Shown here one piece after another: positions 10,917 to 59,900 of a DNA stretch of 64,000 nucleotides. Both the position numbers and the translations under genes were made by a program. The notes under the pieces were generated by a model that was not told the DNA's origin, did no database searches, and worked only from the letters and a program-made list of their open reading frames with translations. Source of the stretch: Bacteroidaceae bacterium (GTDB taxonomy: Bacteria > Spirochaetota > Spirochaetia > Sphaerochaetales > Sphaerochaetaceae); contig CAVBWZ010000012.1 in NCBI GenBank assembly GCA_963599445.1, positions 11,811 to 75,810 on the forward strand, in the 5' to 3' direction. How positions within the stretch are numbered: position 1 is the stretch's first letter; every line of letters begins with the position of its first letter.

Positions 10917-10998
10917 TTCTTTGGGTGGCAGCCGTTGTCGGTGCGCTCAAGCCGTGCATCCCAGCACTGTCATTCGCTTCCTTCTAGGCTGCCGCACC

Positions 10999-11202
10999 AA
11001 ATAACGTCGCAGTTTTCTTGGTCTTTGAGTCGTCTTCATCGTCACTTCGCACGGGCTGTACAAAAAGTACTATCTCGTGCTTGTATCCTTGAATACGGCT
11101 CAAATACCCTCGAAACGATTTCTCCAAATTACGTCGCAGGAGTTTATACTCTCTACTGCATCGCAAACGCACAGGCTGTACAGCTAGTACTATCCTGTGC
11201 GT
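10999..11202. repeat. tandem pair of about 100-130 bp noncoding repeats (family E), each with a GCACRGGCTGTAC-N5-GTACTATC-YGTGC hairpin
   Basis: AAATAACGTCGCAG...CGCACGGGCTGTACAAAAAGTACTATCTCGTGC repeats as AAATTACGTCGCAG...CGCACAGGCTGTACAGCTAGTACTATCCTGTGC. A related copy lies at 47391-47500. Confidence 0.7.
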
Positions 11203-11207
11203 TTTTT

Positions 11208-11623
11208 GGTTCTTCACGGAAAGTTCGGGGATTGGGAGATGAGAATCAAAAGAGATCATCCAGCCTTAGGCTGTCGGGGCTCTTTGGGCGTTTGGGGCTT
11301 ATGGGGCCGTTAGGGCTGTTGAAGACTGTTGAAACGATCGAGGGCGCTTGTGGCTCATGTGGCGGTTGAGACTCTTGTGGCTGTTATGGCGCTTGCAGAC
11401 GGTTGAATCGTGTTTGAAGTGGAGCGCTTTGGAGCGTGCCTGAGTGTACCTGATGGCTCCTGACCGCACCTGAGTGCCCCGCGTTCCTAAATTTAGACCG
11501 TTTGGGAAAGGCTGGAGCGTCCAGATAGGCTAGAGAGACTAGAGAGGCTAGAAAGGCCAGATCGTCCAGATGTACAATGACGCCGTCCATCGTTTACAAT
11601 CTCCGACTTTTCCGTGAAGAGCC
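11208..11623 (+). mobile_element. MITE-like nonautonomous element, copy A (416 bp, terminal inverted repeats)
   Basis: Starts GGTTCTTCACGGAAAGTTCGGGG and ends CCGACTTTTCCGTGAAGAGCC, an inverted match. About 93% identical to copy B over the first 135 bp or so. No credible ORF. Confidence 0.7.
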
Positions 11624-11702
11624 AATAAAAGCGGCGGATTCCGTTAAAAGGGCATCTGCCGCATCCTGAATATGCCTTTCAAAAGTGAATGAACATTATT
11701 CA

Positions 11703-11730
11703 TTGACATTTCAAAAAATGGTGTTATAAT
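11703..11730 (+). promoter_or_regulatory. sigma-70-type promoter of tetR (island)
   Basis: TTGACA, 16 nt spacer, TGTTATAAT (extended -10). Overlaps the inverted repeat AATGAA-N5-TTCATT at 11688-11704. Confidence 0.6.
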
Positions 11731-11755
11731 TGAGGACAGAAAGGGGGTTTGGACG

Positions 11756-12316
11756 ATGCGGATTACGAAGGAGCCGGAAGTGCGCAAGCAGGAGATCATA
11801 GATACCGCCCTCAGATTGTTCGGGGAAAAGGGATACGAAAAGACCTCAATTACAGATATAGCGAAAGCCATCGGTGTGGCGCAGGGGTTATGCTACCGCT
11901 ACTTCCCATCCAAGGAAGTGCTGTTTGACAGTGCAATCGAACAGTATGCCGACGTTCTGGTAGAGCAGATGGTCAGCTCTAAAGGGGATGAAAATCAGGC
12001 ATTGCGGCAGATTATAGAAAATATGCCTTCTGCAATGGAAGACAGGGACACAAAATATTACCGTGTTTTTCACGGAGCAGAAAATAAAAAATTCCACGAT
12101 CAGCTTACCCTCAAGGTGTGCGAGAAGCTGATTCCTTTTGTGGAGAAGATGTTGCAGAAGGCGAAGCAAAAGGGCGAGATCAAGTTTGACGATTTACAGA
12201 CCGTTGCGGCGTTCTGTGTCTACGGGCAGCTCGGCATTCTGCTGGCGGACGATTTGACGCAGGGAGAAAAGTCCAAAAGGATTCGAGAATTTCTCATTTT
12301 CGCACTTCACCTTTGA
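11756..12316 (+). CDS. TetR/AcrR family transcriptional regulator
   Basis: N-terminal HTH: RKQEIIDTALRLFGEKGYEKTSITDIAKAIGVAQGLCYRYFPSKE. Confidence 0.9.
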   Translation: MRITKEPEVRKQEIIDTALRLFGEKGYEKTSITDIAKAIGVAQGLCYRYFPSKEVLFDSAIEQYADVLVEQMVSSKGDENQALRQIIENMPSAMEDRDTKYYRVFHGAENKKFHDQLTLKVCEKLIPFVEKMLQKAKQKGEIKFDDLQTVAAFCVYGQLGILLADDLTQGEKSKRIREFLIFALHL

Positions 12317-12406
12317 AATAATCCCTCACTTTGTTGTGGGGGATTTTTAAGGCAAAATTATTGAATGTTATTCATTCATTTATTTATCAAGGAAAGGATG
12401 TTACTG

Positions 12407-13729
12407 ATGCAAACAAAACTTGATTTTATCGGCGGAAATACAAAGCGCTGCCTATTGGCGATGGCACTTCCGATGATTGCCGCCATGTTCCTCAACATGA
12501 TGTATAACCTCGTGGACAGCCTGTGGATTGGAAACCTGTTGGGCGAGACAGCCTATGCCGCACTCACGAACTCCACTCCCATCATTCTGATTCTGACCTC
12601 GGTTGCAATGGGTGCGACGAATGGAGTTTCCATTTTGCTTTCTCAGGCGATTGGAGCAGGGGACAAGGAGAAAACGGAAAGCCTGATTACTACATCGTTC
12701 TGCGCGGCCGTTGCATTTTCGTTGCTCGCGACGGTTTTGCTGGAGGTGTTTCTGCCGGGAATTTTGAAGGCACTGAATACCCCGGCTGAAACATATGACA
12801 TGGCATACAGCTATCTGTCCATCTATGTTCTGGGGTATTTGGCCGTCTACCTCTACCTTTACTTCACCGCCGTTCTGCGCAGTTTTGGCAATTCCATGTT
12901 TCAGGCTGTGGCTATGCTGGTATCCACGATTCTGAATGCAATTCTTGACCCGCTTTTCATTCACTTAATCGGCTTCCACGGAGCTGCGATTGCAACGCTT
13001 CTCTCTCAGCTGATTTGCTTGCTTTTCATGCTGGTTTATCTGAGAAAGAAAAATTTATTTGCGTTCAAGCTCTCTGCGTTTGACAGGTACGAAGTCTTGC
13101 CTCTCGTTCAAAAAGCGGTTCCGTCCGTGATTCAGCAGAGCATCCCCGCCATCAGCACCACATTTCTCACTGCGCTCGTCAGTACATACAGCGTCACGGC
13201 GATTGCGGCCTACGGTGTGACCGGCAAGTTGGAAACCATTCTGTTCTACCCTGCAATGGCGCTGAATATGGTCTTGACCACGATTGTCGGGCAATGCTCC
13301 GGCGGCAAGCGGTATGACCGAGCGAAGGACTATTTGAAATGCGCACTGGGCTACGGCTGCGGCCTGCTTGTGATCCTCTCCACTTTAGTGGTCGGATTCT
13401 CCAAACAGCTTTCCAGTTTGTTCGTCAAGAGCGACGGTGTGGCGGCCATTGTGGGAACGTATTTCCTAATCGTCAGTATTGGGTACATTCTGAATACAGT
13501 CACAAACTGCTATCTTGGAACGATTAACGGTATGGGAAAGCCCTCGAAAAGCATGTTCCTGATGATCTTCTATTACATCATTGTGCGGATGCCTTTGGCT
13601 TATCTGCTTTCCCATCTTGGTTTTGGCCTGAATGGGATTTGGACTGCGGTACTGGCCAGTCATGTGGTGGCAAGTTTTGCAGCAGCAACAACGGGGACGA
13701 TGGTTGTAAAAAGAGGTGAAAAATCATAA
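12407..13729 (+). CDS. MATE family efflux transporter
   Basis: LLAMALPMIAAMFLNMMYNLVDSLWIGNLLGETAYAALT is a typical MATE N-terminus. 12-TM profile. ATG 12407 follows AAGGAAAGGA; the ORF opens at 12365. Confidence 0.9.
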   Translation: MQTKLDFIGGNTKRCLLAMALPMIAAMFLNMMYNLVDSLWIGNLLGETAYAALTNSTPIILILTSVAMGATNGVSILLSQAIGAGDKEKTESLITTSFCAAVAFSLLATVLLEVFLPGILKALNTPAETYDMAYSYLSIYVLGYLAVYLYLYFTAVLRSFGNSMFQAVAMLVSTILNAILDPLFIHLIGFHGAAIATLLSQLICLLFMLVYLRKKNLFAFKLSAFDRYEVLPLVQKAVPSVIQQSIPAISTTFLTALVSTYSVTAIAAYGVTGKLETILFYPAMALNMVLTTIVGQCSGGKRYDRAKDYLKCALGYGCGLLVILSTLVVGFSKQLSSLFVKSDGVAAIVGTYFLIVSIGYILNTVTNCYLGTINGMGKPSKSMFLMIFYYIIVRMPLAYLLSHLGFGLNGIWTAVLASHVVASFAAATTGTMVVKRGEKS

Positions 13730-13748
13730 GGGATGCTTCTCTTTGCTA

Positions 13749-13777
13749 TTGACAGATACGCCTTTCATAAGTATAAC
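13749..13777 (+). promoter_or_regulatory. sigma-70-type promoter
   Basis: TTGACA, 17 nt spacer, TATAAC upstream of the second tetR. Confidence 0.5.
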
Positions 13778-13841
13778 GTCTAATATGCATTAGATGATAT
13801 GTATTGAACAATATGTTTTAGAGAATGAAAGGATGCAAACT

Positions 13842-14465
13842 ATGGCTCCAAAGAATAAGTTTACGAAGGAAGAAATGATAGAAGCTGCGATGCGCGTTGT
13901 GCAGACCAAAGGTATCGATGGCCTGACCGCAAAGACGATGGCAGACGAACTCGGAACCTCCACCCAGCCTGTTTTTACCGCTTTTGGCTCAATGGATACC
14001 GTCAAGCAGGAAGTCTATGCTGCAGCAGTGCGTGTGTATGACAGCTATGTGGATGCTGGGCTGAAGGAAAAGATTCCGTTCTTTGGTGTCGGGATGCAGT
14101 ATATCCGGTTTGCACGGGAAGAACCGGAGCTTTATCGGTTCCTCTTTTTGACGCGGACGCAAGATCAGGAATATAGCGTCATGAAAGCCATGCGGCATTT
14201 GCAGGAGTTTGTTCGGCCAATGCTGGTGAACATTTACCATGTTACTGACGAAGAAGCAGACCTTTATTTCCGTGATCTGTGGTTCGTCGTGCATAGTCTG
14301 TCCACTCTGATAGTGACCGGCGATTGCCCATACTCCGACTGGGAGATTGGGCAAATTCTAACGGGCTTCAGCATCAGCATCTGCAAATCCATCAAGGAAA
14401 TTCCCGGCTTTGCGGCAGGCACCTTTGACCGTGATGCTGCGTTTCGAGCGCTGAGTTCTAAATGA
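13842..14465 (+). CDS. TetR/AcrR family transcriptional regulator
   Basis: FTKEEMIEAAMRVVQTKGIDGLTAKTMADELGTSTQPVF is a TetR HTH. ATG 13842 lies 8 nt after AAAGGA. Confidence 0.85.
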   Translation: MAPKNKFTKEEMIEAAMRVVQTKGIDGLTAKTMADELGTSTQPVFTAFGSMDTVKQEVYAAAVRVYDSYVDAGLKEKIPFFGVGMQYIRFAREEPELYRFLFLTRTQDQEYSVMKAMRHLQEFVRPMLVNIYHVTDEEADLYFRDLWFVVHSLSTLIVTGDCPYSDWEIGQILTGFSISICKSIKEIPGFAAGTFDRDAAFRALSSK

Positions 14466-14481
14466 ACCGAGGTGATTTCAA

Positions 14482-14670
14482 GTGGCAGACAAAACGAATA
14501 CCAAAATTGATTGGCTTTGCTGCCCAAGATGCGGCGGCAAAACAAGAACGCAGATATTGCCGCACACGGTATTGGAGGAATATCCGCTATTCTGTCCGAA
14601 GTGCAAATACACCTGCGTAATCCGTTTCAAGGACGGAAGAATTGAAAAAATCAAAATGCCAGACGCTTAG
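14482..14670 (+). CDS. cysteine-rich KTR domain protein
   Basis: 62 aa with CPRCGGKTR...CPKCKY, matching the small 'cysteine-rich KTR' proteins of Firmicutes mobile elements. GTG start follows GAGGTGA. Confidence 0.7.
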   Translation: MADKTNTKIDWLCCPRCGGKTRTQILPHTVLEEYPLFCPKCKYTCVIRFKDGRIEKIKMPDA

Positions 14671-14716
14671 ACGCAGTGCAATCCGAGATGATTGGTTTGT
14701 GCTGCGTTTTTATTTT
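14671..14716 (+). terminator. rho-independent terminator
   Basis: 11-bp stem ACGCAGUGCAA / UUGUGCUGCGU (two G-U pairs) followed by TTTTTATTTT, directly after the stop at 14670. Confidence 0.55.
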
Positions 14717-14732
14717 GTAAGGAGGCATATGG

Positions 14733-14861
14733 ATGAAAGATGTGTTTCTTGCATATGTCGATTTCGCGGTTGAAGTTGCAAAGAAGTTAAACCTGTTCGC
14801 CAGTGAATCTGATCTTCAGGAAACCATCAATTTCTGGAAACATTGTCAAAGAGTGCAGTAG
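14733..14861 (+). CDS. hypothetical 42-aa ORF (MKDVFLAYVDFAVEVAKKLNLF...)
   Basis: ATG lies 8 nt after AGGAGG. Shorter than the smallest ORF in the track (60 aa). No recognisable family. Confidence 0.2.
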   Translation: MKDVFLAYVDFAVEVAKKLNLFASESDLQETINFWKHCQRVQ

Positions 14862-14903
14862 AGAGGGAACCTACGCAAAAACGTGAATTGAAATGCTTAA
14901 TGC

Positions 14904-15182
14904 TTGAAGCGAGGAGGGCTGAAGTATCCGTCTATGCAAAAAGGAAATAAAAATGGCCGAAAACTTGAGCCGTGGAGAATAGTCGTAGGCACATTGTCCA
15001 TAGCGTTCATCATATTTCTATGGGTAAAAAATGATATTGCATCTACTTTGGTTGCAATGCCGAAGGAACAGGCCATACCGCTTGCTGTTACAACCATTGC
15101 AGTTTCTGTGGTTAAAGTTGCTGTAATTGCAGGTGTGCTTCTTTTGGCTAAATGGGTTATCGGAAAAATCAAAAGCAAATGA
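14904..15182 (+). CDS. small membrane protein, two TM segments
   Basis: 92-aa ORF with two hydrophobic helices (IVVGTLSIAFIIFLW and TTIAVSVVKVAVIAGVLLLA). No family recognised. Confidence 0.35.
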   Translation: MKRGGLKYPSMQKGNKNGRKLEPWRIVVGTLSIAFIIFLWVKNDIASTLVAMPKEQAIPLAVTTIAVSVVKVAVIAGVLLLAKWVIGKIKSK

Positions 15183-15211
15183 GCGCGAGAATAAGCACAG
15201 AAGGAGAGTAT

Positions 15212-16192
15212 ATGAAGCAGGAGAAAATTGCAGCAATGGAAACCGCTATTGATGTGGACTACAGCAATATTGCTGGTCTGGTCGTGCTGAAAGATGGCCA
15301 AACGGTTTATGAAAACTATTTTGGGGGCTGCACAGCAGAAAGTCGCATCCATGTTTTCTCGGTGACAAAGAGCATTGTTTCCATCCTGTTCGGAATCGTG
15401 CTGGACAAAGGCTATCTTGACAGCATTGACCGAAAGGTATTGGAGTTTTACCCGGAATACGTTATCAAACGTGGTGAAAAGACAATTCAGCATGTCACAA
15501 TTCGGGATATGCTCACCATGACAGCACCCTATAAATATAAGTCCACTCCCTACACAAAGTATTTCACAAGCCTGGATTGGGCGAAATTTTCTCTTGATGT
15601 ATTAGGTGGAAAGGGACGGATTGGTGTGTTCCGCTACACGCCGCTGATCGGGCCGGACATTCTGACCGGCATTCTTGTAAAAGTAACTGGGCAATCCGTT
15701 CTCGACTTTGCAAGAGAGAACTTGTTTTCTCCGCTGGGTATTGCTTTGAAGCAGAATATCACGTTCCACAGCAAAGAAGAACAGATGGCGTTTTATAAAG
15801 CGACTGATAGGAGCGTTTGGGTTGCTGACCCAAACGGAGTGAATGCGGGCGGTTGGGGGCTCACTCTTTCTCCGATGGATATGGCGAAAATCGGTGAGCT
15901 TATCCGGAATAGCGGTGTCTGTGATGGAAGGCGCATTGTATCTGAAGAATGGGTGCGTGAGAGTACATCTGAGCAAAGTCGGTGGATGGAGCGGGATTTG
16001 CCCTATGGATATTTGTGGTGGATTCTTGAGCAGGAGCACGGATGTGCTGCGATGGGTGACGGTGGAAATATCATCTATGTCAGCCAAGATAAGAATATGG
16101 TTGTTGCGATTGCCTCCCGCTTTCAGCAAAGAGCGAAAGACAGAATCGAATTCATTAAGGAGTATGTCGAGCCAATATTTGCCAATATTTGA
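15212..16192 (+). CDS. serine hydrolase, beta-lactamase/transpeptidase-like family
   Basis: S-x-x-K motif (FSVTKS) near the N-terminus; GGWGL and YGYLWW segments are typical of class C-like/PBP4* hydrolases. ATG follows AAGGAGAG. Confidence 0.8.
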   Translation: MKQEKIAAMETAIDVDYSNIAGLVVLKDGQTVYENYFGGCTAESRIHVFSVTKSIVSILFGIVLDKGYLDSIDRKVLEFYPEYVIKRGEKTIQHVTIRDMLTMTAPYKYKSTPYTKYFTSLDWAKFSLDVLGGKGRIGVFRYTPLIGPDILTGILVKVTGQSVLDFARENLFSPLGIALKQNITFHSKEEQMAFYKATDRSVWVADPNGVNAGGWGLTLSPMDMAKIGELIRNSGVCDGRRIVSEEWVRESTSEQSRWMERDLPYGYLWWILEQEHGCAAMGDGGNIIYVSQDKNMVVAIASRFQQRAKDRIEFIKEYVEPIFANI

Positions 16193-16231
16193 TTGAAACG
16201 CCATTGGCGCGGAAATGGAGAATGAAAAACA

Positions 16232-16774
16232 ATGAAGATTGAAACAGAGCGCCTTTTTCTGAGGGAAATGGCACCAGAGGATTTTAATGCGCTGTACGCC
16301 GTGCTTGCTGATTCTGACATCATGCAGCATTACCCTTACACCTTTGACGAGGCTCGCGTCAAAAACTGGATCAGCAAAAACACCGAGCGTTACCATGTGT
16401 TCGGCTTCGGCCTGTGGGCCGTCTGTTTGAAACCTACGGGTGAGATGATCGGTGACTGCGGGCTAACCATGCAGAATATAGGCGGTACGATTCTGCCAGA
16501 GATCGGCTATCATATCGCAAAGGCACACCAGCGCCAAGGCTTTGCAACAGAAGCGGCGCAGGCTGTTCGTGACTGGACATTTACGCATACGACTTTAGGC
16601 ATGGTGTATTCCTATATGAAAAAGGCAAACACTCCGTCCTCCGCCACCGCCCGTGCAAACGGTATGACGTTGCTAAATGAGTTTACCGGTGACGAGGGCG
16701 AGCAGACCGTTGTATATGGCATCAGCCGCAAAGAATGGCAGAATCAGGAAATATCAAAGGAGATTGTCAAATAA
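16232..16774 (+). CDS. GNAT family N-acetyltransferase (RimJ/RimL-like)
   Basis: IETERLFLREM start and HQRQGFATEAAQAV acetyl-CoA binding segment. Confidence 0.85.
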   Translation: MKIETERLFLREMAPEDFNALYAVLADSDIMQHYPYTFDEARVKNWISKNTERYHVFGFGLWAVCLKPTGEMIGDCGLTMQNIGGTILPEIGYHIAKAHQRQGFATEAAQAVRDWTFTHTTLGMVYSYMKKANTPSSATARANGMTLLNEFTGDEGEQTVVYGISRKEWQNQEISKEIVK

Positions 16775-17027
16775 AAACCTTAAATGTTATCCAAAAGTTG
16801 TCAAAAATCGGAAAAATCCCCAGCAGGATTATGTTCTTCTTCTGCATCGTTGGTACGGTATATGCGGTGATGTCAGCAGGCATGCACATGAATGCGTTTG
16901 ATTCCTATGACGTATCGGGTGTGGCAATCCCCAGACACCATATATGATTCTATGATTTTGTACCGGCAACAACGCCGACGGTTATTTTGCCTGCTGAATA
17001 AGGCGATTGTGAGAGGAGGGATTGAAT

Positions 17028-17693
17028 ATGAGCGTCTTGCAGACAATCAATCTCAAAAAATACTACGGCACGAAGCCAAACATTGTCCGTGCGCTGGACG
17101 GCGTGAATTTCTCCGTGGACGATGGCGAGTTCGTTGCGGTCATTGGAGCCTCCGGCAGCGGCAAATCCACGCTTCTCAATATGATAGGCGGTCTGGATAC
17201 CCCCACCTCTGGCCGCGTGATTGTGCGCGGACAGGATTTGGCAGGGATGGATGACGAAGCGTTGACGCTGTTTCGGCGGCGTAATATTGGCTTTGTCTTT
17301 CAGAATTACAATCTCGTTCCAATGCTGAGCGTACAGGAAAACATTGTTCTGCCTGTGGAGCTGGACGGGCATACCGCAGAACGCAGTTTCCTGGAGGACA
17401 TCGTTTCCATGCTGGGGCTGAAAGACCGGCTGTATGCCATGCCGAATACACTTTCAGGAGGTCAGCAGCAGCGCGTCGCCATTGCCCGCGCCCTGATTAC
17501 CAAACCGGCTATCATTCTAGCCGATGAGCCTACCGGAAGTCTGGACAGCCAGACCAGCACAGATGTGCTGGAGCTGCTTCGGCGCAGTAGCCGCCAGTTT
17601 CACCAGACCATCGTGATGATTACCCACAATGACTCCATCACCCGCCTTGCGGATAGAATCGTATGCATTGGTGACGGCAGGATTGTGGGATGA
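17028..17693 (+). CDS. ABC transporter ATP-binding protein (MacB/LolD-like)
   Basis: Walker [10 protein letters not shown], signature LSGGQQQR, Walker [12 protein letters not shown] 17028 lies 7 nt after GAGGAGGG. Confidence 0.9.
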
Positions 17694-19726
17694 GGGGCGG
17701 TGCTATGAAGAAGAAGGCTATTACCCCCATCGTAAAGACGGTTGCCAAACGGGATATGCGTCCTGACAGTATCAAAAATGTATTTTCCCTGCTGACGGTC
17801 TGCCTTGTGACGGCGCTTCTGCTGTCGCTGGCACTCTATGAAAGCGGCTATGAAACAGCAAAGGACAGAGCCGCCGCAGGACAACCGCAGGTCGTTTTCT
17901 GCGACCTCTCCGTACAGCAGGCCGCAGCCCTGCAAGCGGATGAAGATATTACTTCCATCACTCTGAACGAATCAGAGAATGGCTTGGATGCGTCAGTTAC
18001 GCTTTTCGGTGCGGAGAAAATGACGCAGACCGGATTTTCGGATTATATTGCTGAGATCAGTGCAAAGTACGGCATCTGTCACCCTGTAAAGAACACCATG
18101 TTTCTGGACAGCCTATCGGACGGCAACCTGTTCAGTTCCGAACGGCTGCTCCTTGTGGGTGTGGCGTTGTTTGTCCTGCTGGTCAGCGCACTGGTAATCT
18201 ACAATATCTTCTACTTGTCCATAACGATGCAGATTCGACAGTTTGGGCAGTTCCGCACCATCGGAATGACCGCAAAACAGATCAGCGGCATCATCCGTAC
18301 AGAGCGGAAGCTGCTGTGCAGACGGGCAATTCCGGTTGGTCTGGTGATTGGAACATTCATTGCCTACTTGTTGCAGCCAAAAGGCTTTGCATGGAAACCT
18401 GTGGTTCTGTGGGGCCTCGTGATTGCTCTGGTGGTTGCGTTGGTAGTGCAGCTTGCGCTCAATCAGCCCACCAAAATCGCCAGCAGTGTTATACCAGCAC
18501 GTTCTGCAAGGTTTTTTGAAGGTGCATCTGAAAATCGCATACCGCGAAGTAAAAAACGGAAGCTGTCTGCGTGGGGGCTTGCGCGAATCCATGTGACAGG
18601 CAGCCGCAAAAAGGTTATGGTGTCTGTGCTTTCTCTGGCTCTCAGCGGACTGCTGTTCACGCTGGCTGCAACCTATACGACCTCCGTAGATGCGAAGACC
18701 ATTGTAGAGCGGGAGCTTTACCAATACGGCCAATTTATCGTGGAAGAATCAGGACTGTACACGCAATCCGCACCGGAGCTGGACAATCTGACCTCTCGGA
18801 TCACGAAGCTCCCTGGTGTGCAAGGCATCGAAAAAGTCACCGAAACCAGCATCAACTGGTCTACGGGTGGTAGCAGCGATGCTGATCAGCTTTCCATCAT
18901 CGAAGCGGACGATATGCAGATGATCCAGCCATTTGTCAGAAGCGGCGAGGCCGATTATCAGCAGTTGGTAGCGGAAAACCAAGTCCTTGCCGTGGACGGC
19001 GCAGAGGGTGTTTCCATTGGTAGCTCCGTTGCGCTGATCTTTGAAGATGGCATAACGCAGCAATATACTGTTGGGGCAATACTGGACGATGGCATTTACC
19101 ATGATACTGCGGTATATGGTGGCTGGTTTCTGCTTCCGCGAGAGCTGCTGCCCGAAACGCCGGGGATGTTTGCAGTTTCTACAAAGTTGATTGTCGATGC
19201 GGACAATGCCGAATTAAGCAATGTCGAAGCTGATTTGAGGGATTTGCTTAAAACCTCCAATCAGGCGACTTTGACCACCAAGCAGGAGGCTATCATTGAA
19301 AAGGATGCCGCCATTCGCCAAGTTAGCCTGTCCGTTGTGGGGATTACGCTGCTGTTTCTCTGTTTCAGCATCCTGATTTTTGCCAACACGATTCTGATGA
19401 ACATTATTGTCCGAAAAAATGAGTACGCCATGCTGCAATCCATCGGCATGACCTACCGACAGGTTCGGGCAATGCAGATTATGGAGAGTATTCTGGAAGC
19501 GGGGGTTGGATTTGTTATTACACTGGTGCTGGGCATTATCTTCGGAATCGGGATGATTCAGGTTTTGACGCGCATGGGGATGTTCTATCTGGCCTATACA
19601 TTCCCGTCTGCCATGTTCGCCCTGTACTGCGCCATCACGTTGATTGTCATGTTCGCCATTACATTCATTGCGTTCAATTCCATGCAGAAAGCGCCGCTGG
19701 TCGAGCGTATGCGGACAGTAGAGTGA
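17690..19726 (+). CDS. ABC transporter permease, FtsX/MacB family (BceB-like size)
   Basis: 678 aa, multi-TM, with two FtsX-type 4-helix modules and a large extracytoplasmic loop. Start overlaps the ATPase stop. Confidence 0.8.
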   Translation: MRGGAMKKKAITPIVKTVAKRDMRPDSIKNVFSLLTVCLVTALLLSLALYESGYETAKDRAAAGQPQVVFCDLSVQQAAALQADEDITSITLNESENGLDASVTLFGAEKMTQTGFSDYIAEISAKYGICHPVKNTMFLDSLSDGNLFSSERLLLVGVALFVLLVSALVIYNIFYLSITMQIRQFGQFRTIGMTAKQISGIIRTERKLLCRRAIPVGLVIGTFIAYLLQPKGFAWKPVVLWGLVIALVVALVVQLALNQPTKIASSVIPARSARFFEGASENRIPRSKKRKLSAWGLARIHVTGSRKKVMVSVLSLALSGLLFTLAATYTTSVDAKTIVERELYQYGQFIVEESGLYTQSAPELDNLTSRITKLPGVQGIEKVTETSINWSTGGSSDADQLSIIEADDMQMIQPFVRSGEADYQQLVAENQVLAVDGAEGVSIGSSVALIFEDGITQQYTVGAILDDGIYHDTAVYGGWFLLPRELLPETPGMFAVSTKLIVDADNAELSNVEADLRDLLKTSNQATLTTKQEAIIEKDAAIRQVSLSVVGITLLFLCFSILIFANTILMNIIVRKNEYAMLQSIGMTYRQVRAMQIMESILEAGVGFVITLVLGIIFGIGMIQVLTRMGMFYLAYTFPSAMFALYCAITLIVMFAITFIAFNSMQKAPLVERMRTVE

Positions 19727-19915
19727 GCCTGCACCACCTAAGGAAATGGAACATGAACCGAAAAATTGATCGAGCAAAACTATTTACATAGGAGATTCAT
19801 CAAATGAGTATTCATAATCCAAAACGAAAGCGCAGCGTTACTTGTTCCATGTTGCTGGACGGCCAGGACAGCGATTCTGTTGCCCTGGAAGTCTCAAAGA
19901 TATTTCCATATTTTT

Positions 19916-20304
19916 GGTTCTTCACGGAAAGTTCGGGGATTGGGAGATGGGAATCGAAGGAGATCATCCGGCCTTGGGCTGTCGGGGCTCTCTGGGCGTT
20001 TGGGGCCTATGGGGCCGTTAGGGCTGTTGAAGGCTGTTTAAACAATAGAGGTATCTGAGGCTTTTAAGATGGTTGCGGCGCTTGTGGCGGATGAGACGCC
20101 TAAGGCGCTTCAAGACGGTTGAAGTAGAGCGCTTCAGAGCGTGCCTGAATGTACCTGATAGTACCTGAGCGAACCCGAGTGTTCCGCATTTCCAAATCCA
20201 GACTGTTCTAGAGTGGCACGAGCGGCTAGAACGGCTGGAACGTCCAGTTGAACAATGGAGGCACTGCGGCTTGTTTCAAATCCCCGACTTTTCCGTGAAG
20301 AGCC
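19916..20304 (+). mobile_element. MITE-like nonautonomous element, copy B (389 bp)
   Basis: Same termini as copy A (GGTTCTTCACGGAAAGTTCGGGG ... CCCCGACTTTTCCGTGAAGAGCC) and same orientation. Confidence 0.7.
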
Positions 20305-28027: not shown

Positions 28028-28057
28028 GCGCTGAATAGGCAATACGCGATAATACAT

Positions 28058-28089
28058 GGGCCGCTCCTTTGAGCGGCCTTGTGCTTTTT
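28058..28089 (+). terminator. rho-independent terminator of argS
   Basis: GGCCGCTC / GAGCGGCC stem followed by TTGTGCTTTTT. Confidence 0.7.
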
Positions 28090-28110
28090 ATGGATTATGT
28101 CAATTGATTC

Positions 28111-28433
28111 GGCTCTTCACGCTTTTTCCGGGATGAATCCCTGACGGGGGGGGGTGAGGTGCCATCATGGGGGAGTGAAGAGCATGTCCGAAATGACATG
28201 AAAACAGTGAAAAAGCGCTTTTCTAGGCAAAACCATGCACACAGACAACTAAAGCAAGGTCTTTTATGTCATCATGCATGTCATGCGAGGCGCCTTGTTG
28301 GAGTAAAGGAAGGACGATGATGCAGGAAGTTGCCCATAGAAGTCCGTTCCAAGCGCTTTATGGGCAACTAAGTGCCCATAAATGCAGAAAAAAGGGAATT
28401 TATGGGTAACTTTCCGACCCTTCTGTGAAATCG
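28111..28433 (-). mobile_element. MITE-like element, copy D (one end degenerate)
   Basis: Starts GGCTCTTCACG. Residues 28111-28290 align with copy C (47869-48060), including GAAATGACATGAAAAC...TTTCTAGGCAAAAC. The far end is only CTTTCCGACCCTTCTGTGAAATCG. Confidence 0.55.
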
Positions 28434-28473
28434 TCCGTAGAATCTACATACGTCTGCAAGTTGGATTTTCATG

Positions 28474-47390: not shown

Positions 47391-47500
47391 TTCTTGGTCT
47401 TTGAGTCGTCTTCTGCGTCACTGCACTCGGGTCGTACAGAGAGTACTGTCCCTTGCTCCTGTCCTTGTAGCTGAGCCAAAATCCCTGCGAATCGAGACTC
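47391..47500. repeat. family E noncoding repeat, second locus
   Basis: TTCTTGGTCTTTGAGTCGTCTTC..GTCACT.C..CGGG..GTACA.A.AGTACT.TC aligns at about 75% with 11015-11122. Starts at the base after the pdxK stop codon. Confidence 0.65.
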
Positions 47501-47868
47501 TTGGGCTTTTGGCTTCCACAAAAACTTGGAAAAACTCATTTCAGTGGAAGATTTTCCACTTCTTTTGCAGATTCTTCGATTTTTGTGGAAGTTTCCTCTT
47601 TGCGTTTTATATCGATTTCACAGAAAACGCGATTTAAATAGAAAAAAGTATATCGAAAACGAGAAAAACAAGATTTGGATACAAAACATTCGACTGTGTG
47701 CCAACCAAAAAACTGTTTTTGTGAAAGTTGCTTATTTTGCATCTCAACATTTTGCACGCGGTGCGTGCAAAATTTGGACAATTGTGAAATGGTCTTTGCA
47801 TAAAAACAGTAAAAGCAGCCTTTTATGCAAACAAAGTTTAATACTTGGGGTAAAATGCCGTTTTTATT

Positions 47869-48267
47869 GGCTCTTCACGTTTTCCTGGGGGATGAGCCTC
47901 TGACGGATGGGCAGGAGATGCCTCATGGAAGCTATTAGTCGGCCGTCTCGGCATCCGCTTCATGGCCGAAATGACATGAAAACATCGAAAAGGCATCTTT
48001 CTAGGCAAAACAATGCACACAAACAGCGGAAACAAGGCCTTTCATGTCATCATGCGTCGCCTGTACATCTGGACGCTCCAGAGCGCTCTACTTAAACCGT
48101 CTTGAAGCGTCATGACCGACACAAGAGCCTCAACCATCTCAAGGGCCACAGACATCCTCTATTGTTTCAACGGTCTTCAACGGCCCAGTGAGCCCCAACA
48201 GCCCCAAAGCTGGATGCTCTCTTTCGATTTCCACCCCAATACCCCCCCCAGCTTTCCGTGAAGAGCC
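47869..48267 (-). mobile_element. MITE-like element, copy C (399 bp), flanked by an 8-bp direct duplication
   Basis: GGCTCTTCACG ... CTTTCCGTGAAGAGCC termini. The right half is the reverse complement of the left half of copies A/B. TTTTTATT occurs at 47861-47868 and again at 48268-48275. Confidence 0.75.
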
Positions 48268-48421
48268 TTTTTATTACACCCTGAGATGTCTCCTTGATGG
48301 AAAGGACTTGGCTATGAAAAAGCTGGATTTTTCAAAGTTTTTTCAAAAACCGTGAATGGAAATGCGAGGTTTTCTTGAATTAGTTAGATAGAAGGCAAAA
48401 AACACAGAAAAGGAGGTGCTT

Positions 48422-58424: not shown

Positions 58425-59900
58425 ATGGTGAAAACAATGATCGACCGCTGGATTGCGGAGGCGACCGAGTGTGATTTCAAGGTTGCCTTGGAGGTGAAAA
58501 AGCCGAAAAGCTGGCTCAAAAGTGTCAGTGCCTTTGCAAACGGCATTGGTGGAACGTTGTTTTTTGGTGTTGACAATGATAGGAATATTGTCGGTCTATC
58601 TGATGTGCAGAATGATGCTGAAACGATTAGTCGATTGATCAAAGAGCGGATTACACCTTATCCCGATTTTATTCTCAAACCAGAACGTAAGGACTGCGAG
58701 GATGTTCTTGTGTTGTCTGTGTCTGCAGGGCGCTCCACGCCATATTACTACAAGGCAGACGGTATTATGGAGGCCTATATACGTATCGGCAATGAAAGCG
58801 TGATTGCTCCGTCCTATGTCCTGAATCAACTCATTCTGAAAGGAATGCACCGTTCCTACGACGAATTGGTTTCCGAGTATTATTTCAATGATTACTCTTT
58901 TTCTAAATTACGTGAGCGCTATAAGGCTTGGACTGGTAATGGCATGGAGGAAAAGCTGTTCGATTCCTTTTGTATGCGGAACGAAAACGGCAAGTTGACC
59001 AATGCTGGTGCTCTGCTTGCAGATGATTCTCCCATCAGGCATTCCCGCCTGTTCTGTACGCGTTGGAATGGAATTGATAAAAGCGGTGGCGTAGTAGATG
59101 CACTTGACAGTGCAGAATACTCCGGCAGTCTGATTATTCTACTCAATGAAGGTGTCAGCTTTGTCAGGCGGAATATGAAGACACTTTGGAAGAAAACCAC
59201 TGATTCCCGCATTGAGATGCCTGACTACTGTGAGCGAAGCGTCTTTGAAGCTCTTGTGAATGCGCTGATTCATAGGGATTACCTGATTCTTGGCAGTGAG
59301 GTTCACATTGACATCTACGATGACCGCCTTACAATCTGTTCTCCTGGCGGTATGGCAGATGGTACCAGGATACAGGAACGAAATCTGCTCAGCATTTCCT
59401 CTACGCGTCGCAATCCCGTTTTGGCGGATATTTTTGGGCGATTGGGCTATATGGAGCGGCAAGGCAGTGGCTTTAGGAAAATCATGGAAACGTACCATGC
59501 TGCACACAATTATCATGACGAATTGGAGCCCCAATTCTATTCTGATGCTAGCTTCTTTCAAGTTACGTTGTATAACTTGAATTACGGGCAGGCAATCGAG
59601 AAAACAGGCCTTCAAGACGAAAAACAGGCCTTCGAAAATGAAAAAACAGGCCTTCAAGACGAAAAACAGGCCTTCGAGAACCTGCTGATGGGGCTTGAGA
59701 GCAGTACACCGACCAGGGAAAACATTCTGAAACTGTTCTTGCATTTCGGTTTCGGCAATGCTTTTGCAAGGGCCGATGTTATGAAGGTTACAGGAATAAC
59801 GGCTACCCCTGCAACGGAGCTTATGCGAAAGATGAAGGACGCAAAGTTGATCGAGAACGGAATGGGTCGAGGGAAATATGTTTTTACAGAACCTAAATGA
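58425..59900 (+). CDS. AlbA_2/Schlafen-like DNA-binding domain + HATPase_c_4 + wHTH protein ('RecG-like' putative transcriptional regulator)
   Basis: ECDFKVALEVKK...SAFANGIGGTLFFGVDNDRNIVGL (AlbA_2) and LVNALIHRDY...SPGG (ATPase-like). Start is 58425 or 58437. Codon usage is unlike the backbone. Confidence 0.7.
   Translation: MVKTMIDRWIAEATECDFKVALEVKKPKSWLKSVSAFANGIGGTLFFGVDNDRNIVGLSDVQNDAETISRLIKERITPYPDFILKPERKDCEDVLVLSVSAGRSTPYYYKADGIMEAYIRIGNESVIAPSYVLNQLILKGMHRSYDELVSEYYFNDYSFSKLRERYKAWTGNGMEEKLFDSFCMRNENGKLTNAGALLADDSPIRHSRLFCTRWNGIDKSGGVVDALDSAEYSGSLIILLNEGVSFVRRNMKTLWKKTTDSRIEMPDYCERSVFEALVNALIHRDYLILGSEVHIDIYDDRLTICSPGGMADGTRIQERNLLSISSTRRNPVLADIFGRLGYMERQGSGFRKIMETYHAAHNYHDELEPQFYSDASFFQVTLYNLNYGQAIEKTGLQDEKQAFENEKTGLQDEKQAFENLLMGLESSTPTRENILKLFLHFGFGNAFARADVMKVTGITATPATELMRKMKDAKLIENGMGRGKYVFTEPK
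59598..59681 (+). repeat. in-frame 2 x 42 bp tandem duplication (each itself 2 x 21 bp)
   Basis: GAGAAAACAGGCCTTCAAGACGAAAAACAGGCCTTCGAAAAT then GAAAAAACAGGCCTTCAAGACGAAAAACAGGCCTTCGAGAAC, encoding EKTGLQDEKQAFEN twice. Confidence 0.9.

Follow-up and report, generated by a model that had tools for sequence, protein, structure and literature searches.

The ~400-bp repeats of the window, meaning the whole 64,000-nucleotide stretch analysed here (G000:C12:11811-75810), are very probably non-autonomous MITEs which derive from and are moved by an ISL3-family insertion sequence, and which hold captured repeats between their ends. Support for this reading comes from common termini, perfect 8-bp duplications, precise empty sites in sister species, the gene of the partner transposase and a deletion derivative. 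The preliminary description of this DNA had already read the repeats as a non-autonomous transposon family, and the partner, the duplications and the empty sites of one copy now bear it out.

The window belongs to a genome of 2.22 Mb in 27 contigs (G000; 49% G+C), whose ArgS is 93-94% identical to that of two gut Sphaerochaetaceae MAGs (a Hadza-sample 'uncultured Spirochaetales' and 'Sphaerochaeta sp. Phil3'). Two sister species, G006 and G010, were used for the comparison of orthologous sites, and G012 is a more distant congener.

Termini, duplications and empty sites

All four copies announced for the window were found in place by direct reading. The terminus GGYTCTTCACG stands at both ends, in inverted orientation, of copies A, B and C; GGCTCTTCACG is the start of copy D, at 28111. 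The decayed second end that had been proposed for D at 28433 proved to be internal sequence: CTTCTGTGAAATCG (28420-28433) aligns inside a complete D-type copy, G000:C1:82128-82356, and the homology continues to ~28452, so that D is truncated. The features of the window copies are as follows, with the strand given where one was assigned; PRE and module M are repeats treated below.

11208-11623: MITE copy A (416 bp), both ends IRL-type, with PRE (11274-11570) as cargo; its left flank CGTTTTTT and right flank AATAAAAG do not form a duplication
19916-20304: MITE copy B (389 bp), oriented as A, with PRE (19982-20254) as cargo; its left flank ATATTTTT and right flank TAAATTCT do not form a duplication
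28111-28452: MITE copy D, right end missing; IRR-type end, module M (28183-28277) and hairpin module (~28330-28410); no right terminus or duplication recognised
47861-47868: left 8-bp target-site duplication of copy C, TTTTTATT, read directly; single at the G006 and G010 empty sites
47869-48267: MITE copy C (399 bp), whose left end is IRR-type and whose right end is IRL-type, from terminus and repeat searches
47869-47911, plus strand: IRR-derived end of copy C, GGCTCTTCACGTTTTCCTGGGGGATGAGCCTCTGACGGATGGG, matching the ISL3 right end and the end of the transposase gene
47961-48055: module M (GAAATGACATGAAAAC...TTTCTAGGCAAAAC...), common to copies C and D (repeat family D8)
48071-48208, minus strand: PRE segment of copy C in reverse orientation (nhmmer match C12:59881-60018, minus strand; inverted matches I1 and I2 to copy B)
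48244-48267, minus strand: IRL-derived end of copy C, reverse complement GGCTCTTCACGGAAAGCTGGGGGG (inverted pairs I24 and I25)
48268-48275: right target-site duplication of copy C, TTTTTATT, read directly and abutting the terminus

The 11-mer has seven exact matches in the window, and 12 when up to one mismatch is allowed, against 2.3 expected (12 was reached in none of 100 shuffles). Across the genome, 24 exact matches were found where ~2.1 are expected. Pairing of facing termini yields ~13 two-ended short elements and roughly 8 one-ended ones. These MITEs are about 118-500 bp long, multi-copy and without a transposase gene, and are 74-95% identical to one another.

Perfect 8-bp duplications flank five of the ~13 two-ended copies of G000. 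Copy C is one of them, with the exact TTTTTATT pair reported earlier, and the genome-wide terminus search added four; A, B and D have none. The four further copies are:

C1:82128-82356: two-ended copy, 8/8 duplication CCAATCTG, not T-rich
C5:63469-63834: two-ended copy, 8/8 duplication CTTTGTTA, not T-rich
C9:34328-34740: two-ended copy, 8/8 duplication AAGAAAAA
C19:8606-8723: two-ended copy of 118 bp, 8/8 duplication AACATTTC, not T-rich

Since three of the five duplications are not T-runs, the objection that the TTTTTATT match could reflect ubiquitous T-rich tails is disposed of. In the more distant congener G012, a MITE with the same ends has the 8-bp duplication TAAAAAAA. The 8-mers adjoining the 24 exact termini are 83% A+T, against 51% for the genome and 56% for intergenic DNA; the insertion target is thus an A/T-rich 8-mer, often the T-run after a terminator. 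Copy A was inserted directly after such a T-run, and both sister species, G006 and G010, have this run intact.

Copy C was inserted recently. Both sister species have an empty site for it (G006:C2:37798-37805 and G010:C52:19487-19494) with one TTTTTATT each; they align to both flanks of the copy with an 8-bp overlap, and each reads ...CGTTTTTATTACACC.... Copy C is 95% identical over 342 bp to G000:C9:116600-116941, and its IRR-derived end matches C19:8723, C16:56032 and position 1489 of the congener locus L086. A promoter and terminator scan across copy C gave nothing above the shuffled expectation.

Other sites also differ between species. The spacer downstream of argS (window 28028-28473; loci L005 and L006) carries three different MITE insertions in three sister species and is ~120 bp long, without a MITE, in more distant relatives; it is an insertion hot spot. 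At the terminator C16:50601, the MITE lies in opposite orientations in G000 and G006. A joined-flank search covered 18 further loci in G006 and G010, most of which were rearranged or on other contigs. In this search, the C9:116600 copy is absent from G006, at a site that is not clean, the spacers that correspond to C8:71153 (in G006) and C4:95185 (in G010) leave no room for an element, and several PRE loci without termini are common to the compared species.

The statement that no copy has a credible ORF needs some qualification. Mechanical ORFs do overlap A (10935-11369), B (19804-20058) and the first 35 nt of C (47526-47903), and the last of these has no match in NCBIfam or Pfam. Because they are sited in repeat DNA with a 9-bp (three-codon) periodicity, these ORFs are read here as probably spurious.

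An ISL3-family insertion sequence as partner

The autonomous partner that had been sought outside the window is an ISL3-family insertion sequence at G000:C9:43100-44536, which has the same termini as the MITEs. Its terminus GGTTCTTCACGGAAAGTT lies at C9:43100 (GGTTCTTCACGGAAAGTTGGGGGATTG) and a 465-codon ORF begins 100 nt further on. This ORF matches PF01610 (DDE_Tnp_ISL3) at 4.3e-58, well above the cut-off. Its matches to PF13542 (1.1e-5, 25.3 bits against a gathering cut-off of 27.4) and PF14690 (5.2e-4, 20.8 bits against 25.5) fall below theirs, and the ISL3 helix-turn-helix and zinc-ribbon N-terminal domains are therefore only weakly indicated. PF01610 matches in G000 lie on contigs C9, C4 and C16; as had been noted, the window, on contig C12, has no ISL3 transposase.

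The parent element is ~1.45 kb long, with left end GGTTCTTCACGGAAAGTTGGGGGAT and right end GGYTCTTCACGTTTTTCTGTGGGAT, and its single gene product is a DDE transposase of ~445 residues; the stop codon of this gene falls within the right end. After the first 11 nt the left end reads GAAAGTT.GGGGAT and the right end TTTTTCT.GGGGAT, and it is this difference that gives the MITEs two types of terminus. Intact copies are found in three congeners:

L086, 1489-2938: intact ISL3 copy, 1450 bp, both termini, 8-bp duplication AAAAGATT
L087, 1406-2826: intact ISL3 copy, 1421 bp, both termini, 8-bp duplication AAAAAAGA
L088, 1489-2936: intact ISL3 copy, 1448 bp, both termini, 8-bp duplication AAAAATTT

Elements of the ISL3 family are ~1.2-2.3 kb long, with terminal inverted repeats starting with GG and 8-bp direct repeats. 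The partner fits these features by its length (1421-1450 bp), its GGYTCTTCACG ends and its 8-bp duplications, which are A/T-rich, in addition to the DDE_Tnp_ISL3 domain; its subgroup is common to gut Spirochaetota and Clostridia MAGs. The sequence of the partner is new: a comparison with 72,556 plasmid records gave ISL3 matches that were all remote, the best DNA match covering 13% of the element at 69% identity.

The C9 copy is the only near-complete ISL3 copy assembled in G000, and the last 13 nt of its right end are lost: where AAACGTGAAGAGCC should follow ...GGTTCATCCCACAGAAG, the sequence instead reads TAGGATGTTCATAGC..., which is the end of another element. The tail of the transposase is altered because this other insertion removed the tip of the right end. 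The intact-looking ORF and the youth of copy C suggest that ISL3 may still be active in this strain.

The intruding second element (G000:C9:44537-45100; locus L001, ~2349-2931) has an IS110-like N-terminal ORF, MDNRPLKFEAKRIFGLDLSKK, without a match in Pfam. Its left end TAGGATGTTCATAGCTGAGG is inserted after ...AGAAG or ...AAAAG, and further sites are G000:C3:156765, C11:96796 (minus strand), C21:44 (minus strand) and C16:50958, the last being a 20-bp remnant within an ISL3 right end. Three of its insertions lie within ISL3 ends, including the one which removes the right-end tip on C9. IS110-family elements, which it recalls, can target the inverted repeats of other transposons.

A link between the partner and the short elements is provided by the simplest copy, C19:8606-8723 (118 bp), which consists of 22 nt of the left end and the last ~95 nt of ISL3, transposase C-terminus included, and is a direct internal-deletion derivative of the ISL3 element. 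Transposase-gene remnants are also held by C9:34328-34740. In the proposed mechanism, the ISL3 transposase would act in trans on the short elements and insert them, like ISL3 itself, into A/T-rich 8-mers with duplication of 8 bp; the MITEs retain only the ISL3 ends, and the ~400-bp forms enclose intergenic repeats of the host, a cargo probably captured once and then copied as a MITE.

Probably captured interiors and alternative readings

What a MITE keeps of ISL3 is only ~30 nt (27-30 nt) from the left end, ~45 nt from the right end, or both. Between these ends, the ~400-bp copies enclose the intergenic repeats PRE, module M and the hairpin module. The family had been described as mosaic, and it looks so because ISL3 ends captured pieces of separate intergenic repeat families. 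The shared modules on which that description relied were recovered by the repeat finder (D4, D6, D8, D17, I1, I2, I7, I8). The left part of A/B indeed matches the reverse complement of the right part of C (I1, 70 nt at 73%; I2, 53 nt at 77%), and module M of C (47961-48055) is shared with D (28183-28277) over 95 nt at 84% identity. Other copies in the genome carry module M too, and combined stretches of the IRR end and module M recur in G006 and G010 at 80-86% identity. Both module M and the hairpin module of D also stand alone elsewhere in the genome. The hairpin repeat (GTTGCCCATAAATGC...TTTATGGGCAAC; window ~28330-28410) occurs singly after gene ends, for example at G000:C1:201266-201352, C3:146017-146105 and C7:131882-131942, and as cargo in D-type MITEs.

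PRE was found at ~55 loci in G000 by iterated nhmmer searches. Nearly all loci are intergenic, as judged, like all such calls here, from gene positions on a crude longest-ORF map, and most have no termini. Most lie between convergent terminators; examples are G000:C15:38949-39243 and C3:97794-98035. PRE consists of ordered blocks of ~9-bp repeats, with a lag-9 identity of 0.40-0.45 against ~0.25 at other lags (0.35 in the short segment of copy C), and in three of the six segments checked (A, B and the C15 copy) its first block is a quadruplex-type motif, G3+N1-7. PRE was detected in three of the 41 genomes searched (G000, G006 and G010), and it was not found in other genomes carrying the same left end. 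The PRE at C3:97794 is orthologous and without termini in all three species, its repeat numbers varying by species. In a tree of PRE segments, eight of the nine terminus-bearing segments form one clade among those without termini. The terminus label changes twice on this tree, against a shuffled mean of 7.0, a value as low being reached in none of 500 shuffles; the tree is short, unrooted and weakly supported, with an SH-aLRT of 83 for the key clade.

Tandem arrays of this kind recall the STRR sequences of heterocystous cyanobacteria, which are intergenic blocks of short tandem repeats with 7-bp units present at many loci. Both are dispersed intergenic tandem blocks, and PRE differs by its ~9-bp units, its fixed block order and its restriction to three sister species.

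Three other readings have to be weighed against that of ISL3-derived MITEs with captured cargo. The copies could represent a structured intergenic element that is conserved and does not move, REP/BIME-like or a small RNA, with the TTTTTATT pair as a T-rich coincidence. Their intergenic position beside terminators would suit such an element, as would the genuine orthology of PRE without termini across three species. Against this stand perfect 8-bp duplications that are not T-rich, the precise empty sites of copy C in two sister species, termini identical to those of a transposase-bearing element and the polymorphism of terminus-bearing copies between species; moreover, Rfam gave no match for the whole window at the gathering thresholds, and permissive searches of the A and C regions gave no family, only sub-threshold chance matches. 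None of the situations that had been put forward as speaking against a mobile element, namely a lack of other duplications, orthologous structured RNA or T-rich tails, is found for the terminus-bearing copies, and a structured element is extremely improbable. It is barely more credible that each copy is an independent, in-place relic of a full-length ISL3 and that no short element was ever mobilised in trans, even though the 118-bp copy and C9:34328-34740 do keep transposase-gene remnants and solo and truncated ends exist. Copies A, B, C8:71153 and C11:53835 share their end-to-cargo junctions and their non-IS interiors, which argues that MITEs are copied as short units; in addition, C is 95% identical to the C9:116600 copy at another locus, no ISL3 DNA is present in the interiors past ~45 nt, and the flanks of copies sharing cargo are unrelated.

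As a third reading, PRE might have been spread wholly by MITEs, the ~40 PRE loci without termini then being old MITEs that have lost their ends. The restriction of PRE to three terminus-rich genomes among the 41 searched (G000, G006 and G010) and the existence of one-ended and truncated MITEs lend this view some weight, but it remains rather unlikely: the C3:97794 PRE is orthologous and terminus-less in all three species, most of the PRE diversity lies in loci without termini with the terminus-bearing ones nested among them, full-length PRE copies without termini show no degenerate remains of them, and other cargo is found between the same ends elsewhere, G012 and Clostridia MAGs having the same ends with unrelated interiors. 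Taken together, the orthologous terminus-less PRE, its restricted range, the nested clade and the other cargo favour a resident PRE that would have been captured once between two ISL3 ends and then amplified.

The bracketed island, distribution and related systems

Copies A and B enclose a gene island:

11624-19915, plus strand: 8.3-kb accessory island between A and B, from family matches and congener searches

It encodes a TetR regulator, a MATE efflux protein, a second TetR, a PF00144 serine-hydrolase-family protein, a GNAT acetyltransferase, and an ABC ATPase with an FtsX permease. In five congeners, the island has no match at E<=1e-20, and between the left flank of A and the right flank of B, G006 has 147 bp and G010 1.24 kb of unrelated DNA. 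When the source of the island was sought through its FtsX-type permease, none emerged, the only relative, in an Anaerovoracaceae MAG, being 32% identical. The A-island-B unit was not classified as a composite transposon because it replaces ancestral DNA and has no target-site duplication around it (outer flanks CGTTTTTT and TAAATTCT). It may have arrived by recombination through resident MITEs, or by an insertion with later deletions next to it. Among the window copies, A, B and D are older insertions or have been rearranged. An exchange of duplications through recombination between copies was considered for A, B and C and set aside, as their flanks do not pair by eye. An extended inverted repeat around A (I4) is not part of the element and corresponds to two different terminators facing each other.

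The window contains further repeats. An interspersed intergenic hairpin repeat, TTCTTGGTCTTTGAG...GTACA...AGTACTATC..., lies directly after stop codons at 11015-11110 and 47391-47486, and also at 11140-11207; it has many copies in G006 and G010, sometimes in tandem, and the terminator before copy A is itself such a hairpin. At 59598-59680, a 41-42-nt unit, GAGAAAACAGGCCTTCAAGACGAAAAACAGGCCTTCGAAAA (repeat D20), occurs twice in tandem, with 95% identity between the copies.

Exact matches to the 25-nt left end were obtained in 109 stretches of species-representative genomes. Among the 80 of these that were listed are Sphaerochaetaceae, Ornithospirochaeta and many gut and rumen Clostridia MAGs, some of the latter having dozens of left-end copies and their own 300-360-bp MITEs with unrelated interiors. 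The Clostridia left-end loci are among L142-L221 (e.g., L168, L188 and L203); at L168, the same terminator hairpin stands on each side of the element, the two copies being inverted. Compared with the G000 protein, transposases adjoining these ends show 71-77% identity in Spirochaetota, and ~56% in one Clostridia MAG and one MAG labelled Bacteroidales. The presence of the same ISL3 ends in gut Clostridia and Spirochaetota suggests a spread of the ISL3 subgroup across phyla in gut communities.

Microcystis is already known to have MITEs that derive from ISL3, with termini of the GGCTCTTC type and 8-nt repeats. In Microcystis aeruginosa PCC 7806, a 187-nt MITE and ISL3 elements have termini starting with GGCTCTTCG and 8-nt direct repeats (PMC11448079). 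Like the present family, this MITE is short, non-coding and mostly intergenic, its ends begin with GGCTCTTC and match an ISL3 of the same genome, and it is flanked by 8-nt repeats; the similarity is evident only in the first eight terminal bases (GGCTCTTC), as judged without alignment from the sequence quoted in the paper (PMC11448079). The present family differs in that it resides in gut Sphaerochaetaceae, another phylum, its copies measure 118-500 bp and are 74-95% identical rather than identical, and its interiors are assembled from other repeat families of the host. An ISL3-type transposase is also associated with Tn7546, whose inverted repeat is GGGTCTTCGGA and which makes a direct repeat of 8 bp (PMC9782665). 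Tn3-derived TIMEs are mosaic non-autonomous elements (PMC4133298), and the present copies resemble them and MITE-bracketed cassettes as short end-only derivatives enclosing foreign DNA, with A and B bracketing genes. They differ by the transposase family, and the A-island-B unit by its lack of a flanking duplication and its replacement of ancestral DNA.

Less usual here are the captured cargo with its periodicity and the pair of copies that encloses an island. One may tentatively go further and see in PRE not junk but a separate and hitherto undescribed class of intergenic element, captured once and hitch-hiking on the MITEs, and in MITE pairs portable homology or composite ends for the swapping of gene islands like the one between A and B; this wider proposal is possible, and we consider it doubtful for now. 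The general understanding of how MITEs work is unchanged by these findings. They provide a case of MITEs in an uncultured gut spirochaete lineage that is documented down to the partner, the empty sites and one deletion intermediate. Several contig breaks and spurious tripeptide-repeat ORFs find their explanation in these elements, which also show where insertion hot spots lie behind terminators and draw attention to an imported efflux and hydrolase island.
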